Below, one piece after another: positions 209 to 32,375 of a stretch of 64,000 nucleotides of DNA. The stretch's first letter is position 1; each line of letters starts with the position of its first letter. Position numbers and translations under genes: made by a program. The notes under the pieces are model-generated. The model saw nothing but the letters and a program-made list of their open reading frames with translations, searched no databases and was not told the origin of the DNA. This DNA comes from Cyanobacteria bacterium P01_F01_bin.150 (GTDB lineage Bacteria; Cyanobacteriota; Cyanobacteriia; CAKZMO01): the NCBI GenBank assembly GCA_039189765.1, contig JBCCYL010000015.1:1-64000 (forward strand), given 5' to 3'.

Positions 209-465
209 ACCTTAAAATATAAGTCTCCAAAGAAAAGCAGAATAAATCTTATATATTTCCGCAGAAGAACTATTGAAAACTATTCCATTTTTGCTTAATC
301 TGCATGATTTTTAGTTCCCAAACGTATAGCTTTTTAGATGCACAACACAAGTTGAAATTACAACAAATATGGTCATCTAATTCCCCTATTTCCATCATTG
401 CTTGCGATATTTGTATCATCTTGATTCATCAACTATTTGAAACACCACACAAGGAAATACAATCG

Positions 466-2178
466 ATGCTTTATTCTGCTCATCACCAGGATTCTTCCCA
501 AAAAGCAACTCTGCTTGTTGTTGGCAGCGGTATTACTGGATTAATGACGGCCTATCAGGCAGCATTGGCAGGATACTCCGTCAAAATTGTTAGCAAAAGC
601 CCCGATCCTCGTTCGGCAAAGGCTGGTACTCGATTTGAATCATCCACCTGGGATGGATATGTAAATCGCTACATTACGTTAACAGAAGGCCATCCCTATC
701 TGGATTTACCAGGCTACATTACAACCATGTATCCCGGCATTGATACTGATTTTCAGCAGGCTATTTCCCAAGGCGGTATGTTAGTTCATCCCAGGGAAAA
801 GTGGAATGCATTGAACCAGGAATTTCTGGCTGAACGCGATCGCGCCAATGCCAACCATGATGAAATTTTGACGCTGTTCCATGAATATATCGATGAAAAT
901 CGAGCCAGTATGGCATCCTGGTATCGTTTGCTAACAAATGCGATTAAGAAAAATCCAGAGCTTGCGGCCAAGATTTCCCTTCATAGTCATGGCATCGATC
1001 GCTTCTACGATGAGGCCTCTTTATTTGAAGGCGCAACCCACACTCAACGGGTTCAAAATATTGTTAAAAAATCCTACTCTCCCCAGGAATTACTAGCGGA
1101 TCCGTCCTTCCAAATCTATGCCTCAGGATTAAGTCAAGAGCCATTTATCGAAGGGGGGGGACTCACCATGTACGGGTTAGCGTTTGATATCCAGGCGCTT
1201 TGTCGAGAATGGCTGTTTCCTGAACTTGAATCCCATGGTGTAGAGCTTTGTTTGGGTCCTGCATACGACGTCGTTGAGATTGTTCGCGATGCGCAGGGCT
1301 ACGTTGTGGGAGTCAAGACTGCCAATGGCGAACTGCATGGAGCCAAACACCTTATCCTCCATCCCGGAGCCTATATGGATCCCAATGTCCTTAAAGGCAC
1401 GGAGGCCCATGGCAAGCTGGCAGGGGTGAAGGGCCTATGGATGCGCGTAAAACAGGCTGAGAAGTTGTTTGGGGATGCGCCTCGACCCAATAAAATTCAT
1501 GGTGGTCGCTATGCCGTGGAGATGGATGGGCATACCTACACGGGGCAAATTTGTGATTTAAACGTGATGCCCAAACATAATGCCGATGGGAGCTGGGAGC
1601 TGGTGATTGGCAGTGGCTATTTGTTTGTGGGCACCTATCCCTTTGAAGGTGATGCCATTATGGGCCAACCGTTACCGGATGCGGTGAAGGAAGGCGATCG
1701 CCAAACCCAAATTCAGTTTGTGGAAGAGCTGGCGATTCGTGCCTTTGCCCAGGTCGTTTCGCGGGTGTATGACCTGGATATTGATATGGATGCGGTGCTG
1801 GCTGGCACCCATGACTATATCGATCTGCCTTCCAATGGCTGTGTTCGCTCCTGGACTCCCGATGATAAAGAACTACGGGTTTTGATGCCAACGGTCGCGG
1901 GCGGCATGGCGATTATCGACGGTGGAGGTAATACGGGGAGTACGACTAAAGCGCCCTTTGTCAGTCAGTCTATGATTCGCTTTACTCAGGCGATTGATAA
2001 AACGGTCAAGCCGATGGAGATGGGGCAAGAGGTCCTTCAAACGTTTTACGAAGATATTCGTGCCTCTTTACGGCGAACGGTGGATGATTTGCCTAAATCC
2101 CGGTGGCAAGAGTTGGAGGATGCCCTCAATGCTGCTGTGGAGGCGACACGGGCGGTGAGGGCGATCGCTTTATTTTAG
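466..2178 (+). CDS. FAD-dependent oxidoreductase (DAO / D-amino-acid dehydrogenase-like)
   Basis: Rossmann motif LVVGSGITGLMTAYQAA; C-terminal CVRSWTPDD and GGGNTG motifs resemble the DAO family; start moved from 304 to ATG 466, which follows AAGGA at 451-455. Confidence 0.75.
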   Translation: MLYSAHHQDSSQKATLLVVGSGITGLMTAYQAALAGYSVKIVSKSPDPRSAKAGTRFESSTWDGYVNRYITLTEGHPYLDLPGYITTMYPGIDTDFQQAISQGGMLVHPREKWNALNQEFLAERDRANANHDEILTLFHEYIDENRASMASWYRLLTNAIKKNPELAAKISLHSHGIDRFYDEASLFEGATHTQRVQNIVKKSYSPQELLADPSFQIYASGLSQEPFIEGGGLTMYGLAFDIQALCREWLFPELESHGVELCLGPAYDVVEIVRDAQGYVVGVKTANGELHGAKHLILHPGAYMDPNVLKGTEAHGKLAGVKGLWMRVKQAEKLFGDAPRPNKIHGGRYAVEMDGHTYTGQICDLNVMPKHNADGSWELVIGSGYLFVGTYPFEGDAIMGQPLPDAVKEGDRQTQIQFVEELAIRAFAQVVSRVYDLDIDMDAVLAGTHDYIDLPSNGCVRSWTPDDKELRVLMPTVAGGMAIIDGGGNTGSTTKAPFVSQSMIRFTQAIDKTVKPMEMGQEVLQTFYEDIRASLRRTVDDLPKSRWQELEDALNAAVEATRAVRAIALF

Positions 2179-2207: not shown

Positions 2208-2317
2208 ACCTCGTTCCCAGTGCCTCGTTGGGAAGGTGCTTCTGAGCCAGAGGCTCAGGGCGGACAACGGAGCCGGAGTCTTCTTTTGAGATGCTCAGCC
2301 GGAGTCTGGGTACCAGA
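2208..2317. repeat. Degenerate cyanobacterial multi-hairpin dispersed repeat (CTCGTTCCCAG...CTGGGAACGAG type)
   Basis: CCTCGTTCCCAG...TGGGAA hairpin, CTGAGCC/GGCTCAG hairpin and terminal CTGGGTACCAG. Confidence 0.55.
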
Positions 2318-2353
2318 ATTTCCTGTCCAGTAGCAAGAACGAAGAAACGAATC

Positions 2354-3250
2354 ATGCGACTTCTCGGTACTTTTCTGATTGTGATATCGGCGATCGCCTT
2401 TGGGGCTATGCCGATCTTTGCCCACTTTGCCTATGGGGCTAGTGTTACTCCCCTAACAGCTTTATTTTTTCGATTTGCGATCGCCGCTCTCTGCCTTTGC
2501 AGCACTCTGATTATCCACAGAGTTCCCCTGCCTAATCCACGGAATTTCAAAATCCTGATCCTGTTGGGCGGAGTCGGGTTTGTGGTGCAATCTATTACCT
2601 TTTTTACGGCCTTGACATTTGTATCCCCTGGCTTGGTGGTATTGCTGTTGTATCTGTATCCGACGATTGTGGTGGGTCTTTCTATCTTTTGCCTCAACCA
2701 GCCCAGCAGTCCTACTAAATTAATGGCGTTGGCGATCGCCCTGTTGGGAACTGTGTTGACTATTGGCCCGGTGGAAAAAGCCCAGCTACTGGGGGTAGCC
2801 TTGGGTCTGATTTCTGCTGTGACCTATGCCGTTTATGTGTTGGTGGGCGATCGCGTGATGCAAGAGGAATCCCCTTTGACGACTTGCACGGTGATGATTT
2901 CGGCGGCGGCCCTTGTGTTTGGCAGTATGGTGGCTATTCAAGGCGTGAGTTTGCCGACTAGTGTGGTTGGCTGGATGGCGATCGCCGCCCTGGGGTTAAT
3001 TTCCACGGTGATCGCCATTGGCGCTCTATTTGCTGGAATTAAGTGTTTGGGGGCTACCACTGCATCGATGCTGTCAACGTTGGAACCAGTGGTCACCATT
3101 GTGCTGGCGTTTTGGCTTTTACAACAACCCATTACGATTATGCAGATCATTGGTGGAGCGCTGATTTTGATGGCTGTTATGCTTTTGTCACTGGAAAAAC
3201 AACTCCCAAAATTATCCACGGCAGGTTTTGGTGGTGACTCGGATGCATAA
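2354..3250 (+). CDS. DMT/EamA family transporter
   Basis: About 10 hydrophobic segments in two EamA repeats; LLYLYP and STLEPV motifs; ATG 2354 preferred as start. Confidence 0.9.
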   Translation: MRLLGTFLIVISAIAFGAMPIFAHFAYGASVTPLTALFFRFAIAALCLCSTLIIHRVPLPNPRNFKILILLGGVGFVVQSITFFTALTFVSPGLVVLLLYLYPTIVVGLSIFCLNQPSSPTKLMALAIALLGTVLTIGPVEKAQLLGVALGLISAVTYAVYVLVGDRVMQEESPLTTCTVMISAAALVFGSMVAIQGVSLPTSVVGWMAIAALGLISTVIAIGALFAGIKCLGATTASMLSTLEPVVTIVLAFWLLQQPITIMQIIGGALILMAVMLLSLEKQLPKLSTAGFGGDSDA

Positions 3251-3259
3251 ACTTCTCAA

Positions 3260-4201
3260 TCAGTAGCCTTGGTCTCGATTAACAATATGAGCTGGAGTGA
3301 TACCTGCTTCGGTTTGAGTGATGGTATCAGCGATATAGCGAACCGTTAATTGTGGCTGACTAATACAAGCGATGTGGGGCGTCAAAATAATGCGAGGATG
3401 ATCCCAAAACGGGTGATTGGAAGGCAATGGTTCAGGTTCAAAAACGTCTAAACAGGCTCCTGAAAGCTGGCCTGAGGCCAAGGCGCTAACTAGATCATCT
3501 TCTATCAAATGTTGACCTCGACCAACGTTAATTAGATATGCGCCCTTTGGTAAAGAAGCAAATAGTTTACATGATAGAATTCCTTGCGTTTGGGAGGTTA
3601 ACGGTAGCAGACATACGATTACAGAACATTCACTTAAAAAAGTATTGAGCTGCATATCGCCATGAAAACACTCCACACCGTCAAGCGTCTTAGCCCGTCG
3701 ACTCCATCCCCTTACTGATAGCCCCAGAGTAACAAGGGATTGGGCAACGGCTGCTCCCATTGCTCCTAAGCCTAGGATGCCCACAGTAAAAGGTTGTTTT
3801 TGTAGATCGGGTAGTTCTTGCCAGCGGTGCGATCGCTGTAATTCTTGATAATCTGTTATCTGAAGCTTGAATGCTAAAATAGCCCACAGCACGTATTCCA
3901 CCATTGCCCTGGGTAACTCATCATAAACAGCACGGACGATAGGAACGTGGTGGGGTAAATGTGGGTCACGCAGGATATGGTCAACCCCAGCCCCCAGGGA
4001 GCAAATCAATTGCAGGTTAATCAATTGTTGGATGATACCCAATGGGGGCCACCATGCCAGTACAATATTGATATCATCGTAATGTCCACACTCTGGCCAT
4101 ATCCGGACATCCCAAGTCGACTGTGTCTGCTTCAATATTTTGACAACCTCAGTAAGCCATAAATCTGCTGGATCAAGGGTGGTGAGAACGAGGATTATCA
4201 T
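3260..4201 (-). CDS. ghrA: D-2-hydroxyacid dehydrogenase (glyoxylate/hydroxypyruvate reductase A-like)
   Basis: GAGVD, GLGAMG, GWSR, NVGRG, DVFEPEP and TPHIA motifs; Arg/Glu/His triad intact. Confidence 0.85.
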   Translation of the reverse strand: MIILVLTTLDPADLWLTEVVKILKQTQSTWDVRIWPECGHYDDINIVLAWWPPLGIIQQLINLQLICSLGAGVDHILRDPHLPHHVPIVRAVYDELPRAMVEYVLWAILAFKLQITDYQELQRSHRWQELPDLQKQPFTVGILGLGAMGAAVAQSLVTLGLSVRGWSRRAKTLDGVECFHGDMQLNTFLSECSVIVCLLPLTSQTQGILSCKLFASLPKGAYLINVGRGQHLIEDDLVSALASGQLSGACLDVFEPEPLPSNHPFWDHPRIILTPHIACISQPQLTVRYIADTITQTEAGITPAHIVNRDQGY

Positions 4202-4289
4202 GCTTTCGTTAACCAGTCCATTATTGGAAATAAGTAAGAATGTTACTAATGATAAAGAGATTAGAGCACGGAACCTTTAACAAAGCCTC

Positions 4290-5501
4290 CTAGACTATGA
4301 ACTGGGGCAAACTGGCTACGGCCATCTCAATCTCCTTGCGTTGGCCTAACGTATTCAACCGTAAAAAGCCCTCTCCGCAGGATCCAAAGACACATCCTGG
4401 AACTCCTACAATTCCGGTTGACTCTAGAAGAGCTTGGAAAAAGTCCCAAGATGAGAGTGTATCAGGAGCCTTAACCCAGACAAAAGGACTATTTTGAGAG
4501 CCAAAACATTCCAGCCCAATATCTTCTAGGCCATGCTGGAGTAACCGAGCATTTTGCAAATAGTAGTCTACGACTGCCTCGCACTCTTGTTGTCCAGCCT
4601 CGGATAGAGCAGCGATCGCCCCTGCTTGGGCTACGTTAGACGTTCCCCAAAACTTAATGGCATGGCGAATACGCCATAGTTCGTTCAATTCTCCCGCAAC
4701 TGTATCTTGGATGGTAAGGGATTTAGGAATAACACACCAACCAACCCGCAAGCCAGTAAACCCTGCCCATTTGGAAAAACTGCCAATTTCGATGGCACAT
4801 TCTTTGGCACCTTCTATTTCATAGATGCTGCGAGGAATAACTGGATTGGTAATAAAAGGGCTGTAAACAGCATCAAATACAATGACCGTTTTCGTGGCCC
4901 TAGCATAATCGACAAAAGCCTGAAGCTGCTGACGAGTGGCCACAGCCCCCGTGGGATTATTTGGAAAACACAGATAGATTAAATCAACAGGCTGTTGAGG
5001 AAGTGGAGGAAAAAAATGGCTGTCTTCTGAACAAGGTAGATACACTAATGGACGGCCTGCTAGCATCGTACCTTCTACAAAGGACGGATAGGCTGGATCC
5101 TGCACTGCAACCGTATTCTCTAAGGCAAACAGGTCTTGAACGTTAACCGATGCAGATTGAGCACCGTCGCTAATAAAAATATCATTGGACTCTAGCTCAA
5201 CCTGTAGATTATTCCAGTAATAGCGGTCGCAAATAGCTTGGCGGAGTGCTGCACTGCCAACAATATCTTCATAGCCTGTATAAGTCTTTGAGTGCCCTAG
5301 CCGATGGGCACTCTTAACTAATTCCTGAGTCACTGTAGGGGATAACGGTTGCGTTGTATCCCCGAATGCCATCATATAAATGTGAGCCTGGGAATGGGTA
5401 GAACGATATGCTTCTGCTCTACCCCACACTTTGTTAAATACAATTTGAGTGTATGTTGCATCACCTGTTAGTTGACTAAGCCTCGAATTTTTTGTCGCCA
5501 T
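4290..5501 (-). CDS. PLP aminotransferase, LL-diaminopimelate aminotransferase (DapL) fold with divergent substrate pocket
   Basis: CFPNNPTG, FDAVY and SFSKWAGFTGLR (PLP lysine) motifs; residues that bind the distal end of DAP are altered. Confidence 0.85.
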   Translation of the reverse strand: MATKNSRLSQLTGDATYTQIVFNKVWGRAEAYRSTHSQAHIYMMAFGDTTQPLSPTVTQELVKSAHRLGHSKTYTGYEDIVGSAALRQAICDRYYWNNLQVELESNDIFISDGAQSASVNVQDLFALENTVAVQDPAYPSFVEGTMLAGRPLVYLPCSEDSHFFPPLPQQPVDLIYLCFPNNPTGAVATRQQLQAFVDYARATKTVIVFDAVYSPFITNPVIPRSIYEIEGAKECAIEIGSFSKWAGFTGLRVGWCVIPKSLTIQDTVAGELNELWRIRHAIKFWGTSNVAQAGAIAALSEAGQQECEAVVDYYLQNARLLQHGLEDIGLECFGSQNSPFVWVKAPDTLSSWDFFQALLESTGIVGVPGCVFGSCGEGFLRLNTLGQRKEIEMAVASLPQFIV

Positions 5502-5562
5502 TACAATTCGTATCAAAATACCAGAGAGCATTGAAACCAAAAGGTTTCACTTTAGGGCGAAA

Positions 5563-5654
5563 CTCAGATTTTGCACTTGTTGTTTTGTGGGGGCCAAACC
5601 GCTCCCTCAAAACAACATATCTCTTTAGCAAGAGGTACAGGTGCAATATCTGAG
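5563..5654. mobile_element. 92-bp MITE-like element nested in the above
   Basis: 18-bp imperfect terminal inverted repeats CTCAGATTTTGCACTTGT / ACAGGTGCAATATCTGAG; internal hairpin GTTGTTTTG...CAAAACAAC. Confidence 0.7.
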
Positions 5655-5801
5655 CTTCTGACGAGTTGTGTCGGCTTCGCTAACACAACTCGTTCAAAAG
5701 GCAAGGAACACGTCGTGTTTTTTGAGGAGCCTCTAACGAGTTGTGTCGATTTCGCCGACACAACTCGTTCAACATGCAAGAAACACGTCGTGTTTCTTAG
5801 G
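5652..5801. repeat. Two tandem 75-bp double-hairpin units
   Basis: Units start at 5652 and 5727; each has an ACGAGTTGTGTCG...ACACAACTCGT stem plus an AACACG-T-CGTGTT stem. Confidence 0.85.
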
Positions 5802-5882
5802 AGGAAATAGATTTGCAGGCAACCAAAACGCTTCGCCCTCCGGTTTACCATCTAAAGTTGAGGGCGCGAACCGAAAACAACG

Positions 5883-6368
5883 CTAGTTGCTTTTCAGTTT
5901 TTCGCGTCTTAAGCGTTCCTGAATGTAAGGCGATAATTGATAGGTTGACAGTATCTCCAGAGAAATATATGCAGCACCTTTAATACAACCGAGGCATTTT
6001 GTTGAATTACATCGACAGTCGAATCCTTGATCCATTGACCACTCTGTAGAGGGATAAAAGAAAGTTAGCTCATCTCCAGGATTAATTTTTTGCAGGACGG
6101 TCACCGTTCCCTTGATAGGGTTAAAGTGAACATTGGGCTCACACCCATGGTTAATGTACTGAAGAAATTCAGGGTCTAACATGATGTGTTCGTAATCACT
6201 TTTTTGAACTGTTAAATAGTTAGGTTCCGTATAAATTTTTTTGGCTCCAAAAGTGCTGAACAATTCCCCCGGCATAAATGCTGTTGTGGCATGTAATGCT
6301 TTTTCTCCAGTTTTTTTACATTCTACAATCTTGGCAAAGTGGGGAACTTGGATCTCAGTAGTTTGCAT
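5883..6368 (-). CDS. Small stand-alone SET-domain methyltransferase with post-SET Cys motif (possible small-molecule methyltransferase)
   Basis: INHGCEPN, GDELTFFYPSTEW and CRCNSTKC motifs; ATG 6368 preceded by AAGGA. Confidence 0.88.
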   Translation of the reverse strand: MQTTEIQVPHFAKIVECKKTGEKALHATTAFMPGELFSTFGAKKIYTEPNYLTVQKSDYEHIMLDPEFLQYINHGCEPNVHFNPIKGTVTVLQKINPGDELTFFYPSTEWSMDQGFDCRCNSTKCLGCIKGAAYISLEILSTYQLSPYIQERLRREKLKSN

Positions 6369-30911: not shown

Positions 30912-30959
30912 AAACGCCCAAACGCTAAAACGCCCAAACGCCCAAACGCCCAAACTCTA
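30912..30959. repeat. Octamer tandem repeat (AAACGCCC-like) x6
   Basis: AAACGCCC/AAACGCTA units at the 3' end of the aldehyde dehydrogenase gene. Confidence 0.85.
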
Positions 30960-32375
30960 AAACCACCAAGGATCAACCACAGCAGCAATCTTGGCCAAAA
31001 AGACTTGCTTGCGCATAAATCGCTGGATAGATGCTGGTCCCATGCGAGAACCTCCCAGTCCCGATCGCTTAAATGCGTTTTTTTCACCTTCATGGACCAG
31101 GGCTGTCAGGCCAGCATCGTTAAGGCTAATGGCTCCAGCTTGCAGATGTTGCCCCACAAGCTGGGCGTCATCGGGGGAACTCGCAAAAACTGCCGCGCTA
31201 AGACCGTAAACCGTATCATTTGCCAAGGAAATGGCCTGCGCAACCTTATCAAACGTCATTACCGGCATAATGGGGCCAAAGGTTTCCTCGGTCATTATTG
31301 CCATAGTGTGATTAACCTGGGTCAGCACCGTGGGCCGTAGCCACAGACCTCCTCCCCATTCTTCAATGGTGCCACCACACTGGACAATGGCTCCCTTATC
31401 CAAGGCATCCTGTAAATGGCTCCTAATCAGAGCCGCTTGGGATTCGGCAATAATGGGACCAATCTGACCGCTGTCAGGTTCAGGGTAGGCAAGGTCAAGC
31501 TGTTTAGCTTTACTGACCAAGGATTCAACAAAGCGATCGCCAATGGTTCCATCCACATAAATCCGTTCAATAGACAAACAAGACTGTCCAGCATTAACCA
31601 CCGACCCCCACAGCACCGCAGTAGCTGCCTGCTCCACATTCGCTGAGGCTAAAACAATGGCGGGATCTTTGCCCCCCAGCTCCAAAAACGCAGGAATCAT
31701 TCGTTTTGCCGCCGCCATAGCCACGGTTTTCCCCGTCGCGACACTACCGGTAAAGCAGACCAGATCTACGACATCGACCAAAGCAGCCCCCGTTTCCCCT
31801 GCTCCTTCAATATAGGTGAGAACTGATTGGAGAGAGGGGACGGAGGCGATCGCCTCCATCATGACCTGAATAAATCGAGGAGCAATTTCACTGGGTTTCA
31901 CCACCACAGCACAACCCGCCAGCAATGCGGGAACCGTATCGATAGTGGAGAGCAACAGGGGAAAATTCCAGGGACTGATCACCCCCACCAAGCCATAGGG
32001 GACAAGCTGGGGCCGTAGCTGAATAAACGGAATAGCGGCGTTTTTTGTTGGGGCTGGAGCAATCAGATCTGGAGTCAGTCCACACCAGCGATCCAGACCT
32101 GAGAGAAACGAGTCCACCTCCAAGATCGATTCAGAGAGGCGGCCCGTATCTGTCACCAGTGCCTGAATCAAGGCGTCTTTGCGCTTTACCAACGCCTGTT
32201 TCCACGCCTGCAAAGCTGCAATCCGATGGGCCACACCTTTTGTCTGCCAACCCTGCTGCTCTTGGCGTAAACGGTCACAGATGGCAGTTAGCTGCTCCGG
32301 GGTAGGCGGGGTAATCTGATAGTCCAAACACCCTGTGCGAGGATTGCGCACGGCAATAGCTTTAGTCATATCCAA
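30957..32375 (-). CDS. Aldehyde dehydrogenase family protein
   Basis: ISPWNFP, KPSE, FTGS, LELGGKDP, NAGQSC and EETFGP motifs. Confidence 0.95.
   Translation of the reverse strand: MDMTKAIAVRNPRTGCLDYQITPPTPEQLTAICDRLRQEQQGWQTKGVAHRIAALQAWKQALVKRKDALIQALVTDTGRLSESILEVDSFLSGLDRWCGLTPDLIAPAPTKNAAIPFIQLRPQLVPYGLVGVISPWNFPLLLSTIDTVPALLAGCAVVVKPSEIAPRFIQVMMEAIASVPSLQSVLTYIEGAGETGAALVDVVDLVCFTGSVATGKTVAMAAAKRMIPAFLELGGKDPAIVLASANVEQAATAVLWGSVVNAGQSCLSIERIYVDGTIGDRFVESLVSKAKQLDLAYPEPDSGQIGPIIAESQAALIRSHLQDALDKGAIVQCGGTIEEWGGGLWLRPTVLTQVNHTMAIMTEETFGPIMPVMTFDKVAQAISLANDTVYGLSAAVFASSPDDAQLVGQHLQAGAISLNDAGLTALVHEGEKNAFKRSGLGGSRMGPASIQRFMRKQVFLAKIAAVVDPWWF

Follow-up and report, generated by a model that had tools for sequence, protein, structure and literature searches.

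A conserved cyanobacterial cassette joining a BurB-like SET protein, a rebuilt aminotransferase and a 2-hydroxyacid reductase, and its possible role in making a sulfonium hydroxy acid

An earlier note on a 64,000-nucleotide stretch of contig JBCCYL010000015.1 from Cyanobacteria bacterium P01_F01_bin.150 (hereafter the window) drew attention to three co-oriented genes, encoding a small SET methyltransferase, a DapL-fold aminotransferase with an altered pocket, and a GhrA-like 2-oxoacid reductase, and proposed that together they build a sulfonium metabolite. All three open reading frames (ORFs) were located on the minus strand, exactly where the note had placed them (Table 1). Our analysis suggested, tentatively and at somewhat less than even confidence, that this cassette is a small-molecule pathway leading from methionine (Met) through S-methylmethionine (SMM) and 4-dimethylsulfonio-2-oxobutyrate to 4-dimethylsulfonio-2-hydroxybutyrate (DMSHB). 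The proposal gained from the kinship of the SET protein with BurB, the conservation of the three genes together, the rebuilt aminotransferase pocket, and the tie of one related locus to SMM chemistry. The folds, the kinship, the pocket and the linkage were observed; from them we infer which substrate is used, that sulfur accepts the methyl group, in what order the enzymes act and what the cassette does for the cell.

In the proposed pathway, the SET protein would add a methyl group to a free alpha-amino acid at its side chain, with the sulfur of Met as the likeliest target, to give SMM. The DapL-derived aminotransferase, in whose distal pocket the Lys, Glu and Asn that grip the far end of diaminopimelate (DAP) have been lost and Gln, Ile and Trp gained, would then remove the alpha-amino group of SMM, and the GhrA-like reductase would use NADPH to reduce the resulting 4-dimethylsulfonio-2-oxobutyrate to DMSHB, a D-2-hydroxy acid. 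Overall, a cationic "onium" amino acid would exchange its charged alpha-amine for a hydroxyl and become a zwitterion. A 2-oxoglutarate (2OG)/Fe(II) oxygenase, a sulfotransferase, or both, encoded between the aminotransferase and the reductase in some genomes, may tailor that product. In a sub-variant, Met would first be converted to 4-methylthio-2-oxobutyrate (MTOB) and then to 4-methylthio-2-hydroxybutyrate (MTHB), with the SET protein acting last; the product would likewise be DMSHB.

The three enzymes and their closest relatives

The SET protein matched the Pfam SET model at 30.1 bits (cut-off 22.4), and the cysteine of its NH[SG]C motif and those of its post-SET CxCx4C motif (C76, C118, C120 and C125) were invariant in all 25 aligned family members. 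Its closest sequence in the PDB was BurB (9l4t, E 1.6e-8), and a profile of the 25 members scored 71.5 bits against BurB (E 6.1e-19), the next entry being KMT2D at 38.6 bits (E 7.8e-9). The AlphaFold model of the protein, with a mean predicted local distance difference test (pLDDT) score of 91.4, found its top fold matches in BurB with SMM and S-adenosylmethionine and BurB with Met (9l4v, 9l4t), at a template modeling (TM) score of 0.71 over 139-153 columns, whereas the SET domains of histone methyltransferases reached at most 0.61 among the matches listed. By profile and by fold, the SET protein was thus BurB-like and not like the histone lysine methyltransferases.

The substrate of BurB is free L-Met, which it converts to SMM, whereas MTHB and methylmercaptopropionate (MMPA) are not accepted; it holds Met by main-chain atoms of R70, T73, V130 and M132, and its Y124 sits beside the transferred methyl (PMC12542666). 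The Met-binding segments T73-x-Q and Y124-x-S-T-E...R133 of BurB aligned to T53-V-Q and Y105-P-S-T-E...Q114 of the window protein, which reads Y105-P-S-T-E-W-S-M-D-Q in this region. BurB H93 aligned to H74 and S88 to a leucine, and the position of R133 is Gln in the window protein and Arg in most family members. Because BurB contacts Met through the main chain, the side chains at this site say little. A signature, T-x-Q ... Y-x-[ST]-T-E-x4-[RQ]-x-F-x-C-x-C-x4-C, was common to the window protein, the BurB orthologue of Eleftheria, a BurB-like protein of Sphingomonas and a Streptomyces plasmid protein. BurB and the Met S-methyltransferase of Streptomyces have the same activity at 35% identity (PMC7496086), so low identity is not a bar to the same chemistry.

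An Atlas search with the window SET protein brought up members of that protein's family, one Ascomycota cluster labelled "Post-SET", and nothing else. The members of the latter, 246-aa "Post-SET domain" proteins, reached a TM score of 0.89 (by query) to the Atlas model of the window protein, and the consulted sections of PMC8085414 report the gene for a fungal free-lysine methyltransferase as unidentified.

The aminotransferase ORF spans 4290-5540, and alignment with 15 orthologues placed the conserved start at its 14th codon. The protein matched Aminotran_1_2 at 150.8 bits, and its PDB matches were DapL 6oxm, ALD1 4fl0 and DapL 3qgu, with the DapL structures at 276-310 bits and ALD1 at 289 bits. 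It also passed the TIGR03542 (DapL) cut-off, at 434.6 against 364.7 bits, and every named orthologue among the hits is called LL-diaminopimelate aminotransferase. These scores and names would suit an ordinary LL-diaminopimelate aminotransferase serving lysine synthesis, in which case the trio would have no common function. We consider this very improbable, as all three DAP-recognition residues were replaced and the few close homologues that keep the DapL lysine and asparagine (8 of 120) were the most distant.

In Chlamydomonas DapL the substrate is recognized by K142, by E110 from the other subunit and by N321, and the pyridoxal phosphate (PLP) lysine is K282 (PMC3102117). Aligned to 3qgu, the window aminotransferase has Gln, Ile and Trp at the three recognition positions and retains the PLP lysine. 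The pocket change reported in the earlier note was therefore real, and the three residues were replaced across the orthologues as well. The Schiff-base lysine was present in all 120 closest homologue clusters; the K142 position held Gln in 101, His in 11 and Lys in 8, the N321 position Trp in 110, Asn in 8 and Leu in 2, and the E110 position Ile, Val, Phe or Leu in 104. Both Lys and Asn occurred together in the same 8 clusters. The window enzyme thus shares its fold and PLP lysine with DapL and differs from it in the substrate-recognition residues, and with all three of these replaced we did not file it as DapL despite the TIGR03542 pass. Plant ALD1, a lysine aminotransferase paralogue, has the Lys-to-Gln change in common with it but keeps the Glu and the Asn. 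Among the aminotransferases with the tryptophan pocket (window 4290-5501, P0122-P0229), the named clusters carry the label "LL-diaminopimelate aminotransferase" and many are unnamed. The label probably follows from passing the TIGR03542 cut-off and is probably wrong for this clade; whether the product is a sulfonium or an ammonium compound, the 110 clusters with this pocket are probably not DAP enzymes despite their names.

The reductase matched 2-Hacid_dh_C (PF02826) at 160.4 bits. Its best NCBIfam model was GhrA (NF012013) at 260.3 bits, under the equivalog cut-off of 403, and its top PDB match was the E. coli-type GhrA 6p35 at 235 bits. The RG, E and H of the catalytic motif and the WSR(R/T) motif after GxGxxG align between the two proteins, and the window enzyme is probably NADPH-dependent. 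GhrA was hence its best relative by family and by structure, the Arg, Glu and His of catalysis being in register together with the motif of NADPH type; the window enzyme differs in scoring below the equivalog level and in having its gene linked to the aminotransferase and SET genes, and that genetic tie suggests a 2-oxo acid other than the one GhrA uses.

Linkage of the cassette and the partners of the SET family

In a scan of one genome per species, at least 586 stretches encoded a relative of the SET protein, and the best 80 were read for their neighborhoods (numbered here with an L). They comprised 52 loci of a Bacteroidota type and 28 of a cyanobacterial type, the latter being 27 cyanobacterial loci and one from a Candidatus Parabeggiatoa metagenome-assembled genome (MAG; L020). 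An aminotransferase with the tryptophan pocket lay downstream of the SET gene on the same strand in 15 of the 28, and the full trio was present in 11, always in the order SET, aminotransferase, reductase and on one strand. The three genes were thus conserved together, and the recurrence of their order in 11 other genomes indicated that the grouping is not due to chance. Within the trio loci the reductase orthologues were 48-54% identical to the window reductase, and the gap between aminotransferase and reductase genes was -13 to 58 bp in 7 of the 11; the gap between SET and aminotransferase genes was 13-243 bp in 11 of the 15 related loci. Four loci had the SET and aminotransferase genes and no reductase: two stop at a contig edge (L002, L008), one has about 1.3 kb left (L005), and in L003 about 3.5 kb beyond the aminotransferase held no reductase. 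The aminotransferase of L014 was dismissed as a cassette member, being an unrelated protein, 28% identical and on the opposite strand.

One of the 11 complete trios is that of L020, from a gammaproteobacterial sulfur bacterium. Its SET protein nested inside the cyanobacterial clade in a quick tree with support by the Shimodaira-Hasegawa-like approximate likelihood ratio test (SH-aLRT 99), which suggested horizontal transfer of the cassette. Small 2OG/Fe(II) oxygenase genes lay inside the cassette in five loci (L002, L003, L005, L006 and L011) and sulfotransferase genes in three (L005, L008 and L024); neither protein had informative relatives among solved or curated entries.

The linkage bears on another explanation, in which the SET protein methylates lysines of proteins and the aminotransferase and reductase are an unrelated salvage pair for amino acids and 2-oxo acids that happens to lie alongside. 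The public names of the SET orthologues read "SET domain-containing protein-lysine N-methyltransferase", 13 of the 28 cyanobacterial-type loci have no such aminotransferase near the SET gene, and the long spacer in the window, with its terminator-like hairpin, stands between the SET and aminotransferase genes. Order and strand were nevertheless kept in 15 loci, across several cyanobacterial families and a gammaproteobacterium, the kinship of the SET protein was with BurB and not with protein lysine methyltransferases, and its recurrent partners were all small-molecule amino-acid enzymes or exporters. We accordingly judged a protein substrate to be improbable.

The loci without the aminotransferase were informative in their own right. 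A GNAT gene stood beside the SET gene in L001 and L009, a formyltransferase-like gene in L016 and L022, an ATP-grasp-SET fusion occurred in L014, L015 and L023, and MatE exporters in L007, L014 and L023. Fusions of this kind were rare: at E <= 1e-10, four longer fused SET forms were found, two of them tied to Ddl-like ATP-grasp ligases (one through its domain hits, the other through its name only), and none of the four was fused to an aminotransferase or a reductase. In the Bacteroidota-type loci, mostly from Chitinophagaceae, the SET gene was followed immediately by a Ddl-like ATP-grasp gene in 48 of 52, then by a second ATP-grasp gene in 42 and an ABC_membrane_3 gene in 21; the ATP-grasp gene was missing in three loci, and one more was lost to the ORF filter. 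In the one such locus scanned against Pfam (L027, 7953-12124), the second ATP-grasp gene carried a divergent SET domain of its own. This arrangement is apparently a conserved, undescribed cluster, and its content suggests a methylated amino-acid peptide as the product. The alpha-amine or the carboxylate of an amino acid is what each of these partners works on, be it aminotransferase, GNAT, formyltransferase, ATP-grasp ligase or decarboxylase, and the SET product would accordingly be a free, side-chain-methylated amino acid; this pattern of partner enzymes is the strongest comparative argument pointing to such a product.

A broader view, which we hold with some doubt, is also possible: the SET family as a whole would make SMM from free Met, and SMM would be a hub whose fate is set by the adjoining gene. 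With an aminotransferase and reductase it would go to DMSHB by a hybrid route, methylated first and then transaminated and reduced; with a BurI-like decarboxylase and amine oxidase it would go to dimethylsulfoniopropionate (DMSP); a GNAT or formyltransferase would give N-acyl-SMM, and ATP-grasp ligases would give SMM peptides. Its scope would be that of the SET family, in at least 586 genome stretches of filamentous cyanobacteria, Parabeggiatoa and many Chitinophagaceae, and if it were true, benthic and terrestrial cyanobacteria would be unrecognized producers of sulfonium compounds.

Efflux-type transporters outnumbered uptake systems among the SET neighbors, RND efflux genes flanking the trio in L010, L013 and L018. 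The frequency of exporters (EamA in the window, MatE and RND elsewhere) suggested that the product is released. MscS-type channel genes near the SET gene in L005, L008 and L022 were the sole hint of a link to osmotic stress.

Two further loci deserve mention. In a Scytonema MAG (L012:1-8495), the SET gene follows genes for a polyketide synthase (PKS; DH-cMT-KR-ACP) and a nonribosomal peptide synthetase (NRPS; C-A-PCP-TE) on the same strand, and these genes directly upstream recall the assembly-line pathway of BurB. A ketol-acid reductoisomerase (KARI) gene beside the SET gene in L007 was considered as a BurG-type lead and set aside as a housekeeping gene, the IlvC model scoring 583 bits against a cut-off of 336.

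Sulfur or nitrogen as the methyl acceptor

The tie of the SET family to SMM chemistry came from one member, which lies near a BurI-type decarboxylase gene. This locus, in a Microcoleaceae MAG (L030:2179-6286), encodes a flavin amine oxidase, the SET protein, a 194-aa protein that could be placed in no known family, and a decarboxylase; the SET gene is thus two genes from the LysA-like decarboxylase gene and has the amine oxidase gene directly upstream. This decarboxylase shared 45% identity (353 bits) with the one encoded at the place of burI in a bur-like cluster of Eleftheria terrae, and 46% (382 bits) with one whose gene overlaps that of a BurB-like SET protein in Sphingomonas. Against solved LysA enzymes it scored at most 157 bits, and against the lysA model 241 bits (cut-off 297.9). 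The SET proteins of the two comparison loci scored 249 (Eleftheria) and 115 (Sphingomonas) bits to BurB. The Eleftheria cluster runs in the order PKS, SET, TauD-type oxygenase, class-III aminotransferase, aldehyde dehydrogenase, megasynthase, KARI homologue, FkbH, decarboxylase and AMP-ligase. This order matches that of bur, and on position its decarboxylase was taken as the counterpart of BurI, the SMM decarboxylase; in the passages of the bur literature consulted, BurI is described merely as "a decarboxylase". From its gene content, L030 looks like a methylation-type, DMSP-like route from SMM to an amine and on to an aldehyde.

Several points weigh against a sulfonium product in the cassette, and many of them bear equally on a rival in which the target of the SET protein is the distal nitrogen of free lysine or ornithine, methylated as far as the trimethylammonium form. 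The cassette would then yield a 2-hydroxy-omega-trimethylammonio acid, a betaine-type compound. The usual target of SET enzymes is nitrogen, lysine N-methylation being their ordinary chemistry, and all solved relatives of the window protein except BurB are lysine methyltransferases. The 2-oxo acid that SMM would yield is reportedly unstable. The DapL/ALD1 pocket fits substrates of lysine length, both enzymes binding such substrates, and the Lys-to-Gln change is one that the window enzyme has in common with ALD1; with a Trp gained and the Glu for the distal amine gone, the pocket would suit a quaternary ammonium, and a sulfonium equally. Identity between the window SET protein and a BurB orthologue is only 24%, and two substrate-adjacent BurB positions differ, D123 being replaced by F104 and D129 by W110, so the specificity of the window protein may differ from that of BurB; these extra aromatic residues near the BurB substrate site are a further point in favor of the ammonium compound.

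Neighboring genes added to this side of the argument. In Symploca sp. SIO1C2 (L005:8594-13700), four genes lie between the SET and aminotransferase genes, encoding an 807-aa tandem CaiB-type CoA-transferase, a GBBH/TMLH/TmpA-like dioxygenase, a small 2OG oxygenase and a sulfotransferase. The best models for the dioxygenase all act on trimethylammonium compounds and were all under their cut-offs (TmpA at 221 bits, gamma-butyrobetaine dioxygenase at 196 and trimethyllysine dioxygenase at 167). By its content L005 looks like an "onium compound" cluster in extended form; the DMSP lyase DddD is likewise built of tandem CaiB domains, and the CoA-transferase therefore cuts both ways. In L001 the SET gene is followed by a GNAT gene and, two genes downstream, by one for an N-methyl-amino-acid-oxidase-like flavoprotein. 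The SET gene of L030, a single locus, has an in-frame stop inside its EFLQ/YINH motif and may be a pseudogene or an assembly error. The 381-bp repeat-filled spacer with its terminator-like hairpin splits the SET gene of the window from the other two, and cotranscription of all three is uncertain here. Oscillatoria SIO1A7 (L001) and Symploca SIO3E6 (P0023) carry the SET family and are described as making DMSP with DsyGD (PMC11306096), so a second DMSP-type route would be redundant in these strains.

On the other side, the nearest characterized enzyme to the SET protein is an S-methyltransferase, by a wide margin, and the L030 decarboxylase, the sole partner with a characterized counterpart, resembles the enzyme encoded where a bur-like cluster has its SMM decarboxylase. 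Apart from one residue, the spacing of segments about the BurB substrate site is unaltered, which suggests an acceptor at a methionine-like distance, and such a distance would favor ornithine over lysine as the nitrogen substrate. The suggestive neighbors in L005 and L001 are single loci. An N-methylated product fits most of the evidence equally well; weighing these points together, we consider a trimethylammonium product unlikely, and the conversion of Met to DMSHB the favored reading. If the product were a trimethylammonium hydroxy acid after all, the SET protein would be a bacterial free-lysine or free-ornithine N-methyltransferase, and in the carnitine literature, as far as the consulted part of PMC8085414 goes, the gene for free-lysine or free-ornithine methylation is not pinned down.

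Known routes and the rest of the window

The known markers of DMSP synthesis, dsyB, DSYB, dsyGD, DSYE, mmtN and burB, do not account for every producer: some cyanobacteria lack all of them and still make DMSP, and burB is described as restricted to few taxa (PMC11306096, PMC13360808). BurB of Burkholderia thailandensis and MSMT of Streptomyces mobaraensis are, like the window protein, compact stand-alone SET plus post-SET proteins of about 160-180 aa, and they are likewise encoded in small-molecule clusters. Their partners in the bur/MSMT route are an aldehyde dehydrogenase, an aminotransferase of class III and a decarboxylase resembling LysA, whereas the window pairs its SET protein with a class-I aminotransferase of DapL fold and with a 2-hydroxyacid reductase, so the cassette falls outside the bur/MSMT gene set. 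In the window, a tblastn search with the L030 decarboxylase gave no match, Pfam scans found no class-III aminotransferase, and the sole aldehyde dehydrogenase gene they found (30957-32375) was about 25 kb from the cassette.

The transamination route, made up of a Met aminotransferase, an MTOB reductase, a methyltransferase (DsyB, DsyG, DSYE or TpMMT) and a DMSHB decarboxylase, shares its first three chemistries with the cassette and has DMSHB as the expected common product. Its methyltransferase has a Rossmann fold, whereas the sole methyltransferase of the cassette is a class-V SET protein, possibly acting first, and no class-I (Rossmann) methyltransferase domain occurs in the cassette. DsyG is described as a PF08241 protein (PMC11306096), and this difference in methyltransferase class places the cassette outside the DsyB/DsyG set. 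A DsyD-type decarboxylase is also absent from the window, which encodes no enzyme for the decarboxylating step from DMSHB to DMSP. Taken together, the cassette would work like a hybrid, with a methyltransferase like that of the methylation route and aminotransferase and reductase chemistry like that of the transamination route.

No prior description of the trio was found in our literature searches, whose scope was open-access main texts, with supplementary files and subscription-only papers outside it. The consulted part of PMC11306096 names no confirmed gene for a Met aminotransferase or an MTOB reductase, and one predicted MTOB reductase was inactive. If the cassette does make a sulfonium compound, it would be a new gene set for sulfonium hydroxy acids, recovered from a conserved, misannotated cassette, and its aminotransferase and reductase would be the first candidates for these two chemistries to come with genetic linkage.

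Table 1. Coordinates of the cassette and of the genes adjoining it in the window
Feature	Position	Strand	Remarks
SET/post-SET protein	5883-6368	-	161 aa; Pfam SET match
SET-aminotransferase spacer	5502-5882	-	381 bp; tandem hairpin repeats and terminator-like hairpin
DapL-fold class I aminotransferase	4290-5501	-	403 aa from conserved start
GhrA-like D-isomer-specific 2-oxoacid reductase	3260-4201	-	313 aa
DAO-type flavoprotein	304-2178	+	624 aa, long insertions
EamA-family exporter	2291-3250	+	convergent with reductase gene

The flavoprotein and the EamA exporter were rejected as cassette members, homologues being found in none of the 80 related loci, and an Atlas search with the flavoprotein gave only generic neighbors resembling D-amino-acid dehydrogenases. 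The GC content of the cassette (0.455) lay inside the range of the window (0.43-0.52), giving no sign of an island. Beyond these features the window is an ordinary piece of cyanobacterial chromosome that carries petB/petD, a gene for a PBS-lyase HEAT protein and CHAT/CHASE2 genes. Upstream of the SET gene, the region 6909-27670 holds a gene for a 2987-aa two-partner-secretion (TPS)-domain repeat protein, exoprotein-like, followed by genes for an FG-GAP repeat protein, two DUF928 proteins, a CHAT-CHASE2 protein and a DUF1822 protein; these genes seem to have nothing to do with the cassette.

Within the spacer, two tandem 72-nt repeats (5652-5723 and 5727-5798, 75 nt from start to start) were 86% alike, each with a perfect hairpin of 14-15 bp. 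The repeat had two matches in the 64-kb window, both in this spacer, against none expected, and it may be a small mobile repeat or a regulatory element. The terminator-like hairpin lies at 5544-5563; a promoter and terminator scan gave counts no higher than those of shuffled sequence (8 against 7.5 +/- 2.8 and 7 against 4.1 +/- 2.1). A 95-aa ORF at 5564-5851 is probably spurious, since it matched no family and overlaps the repeats.

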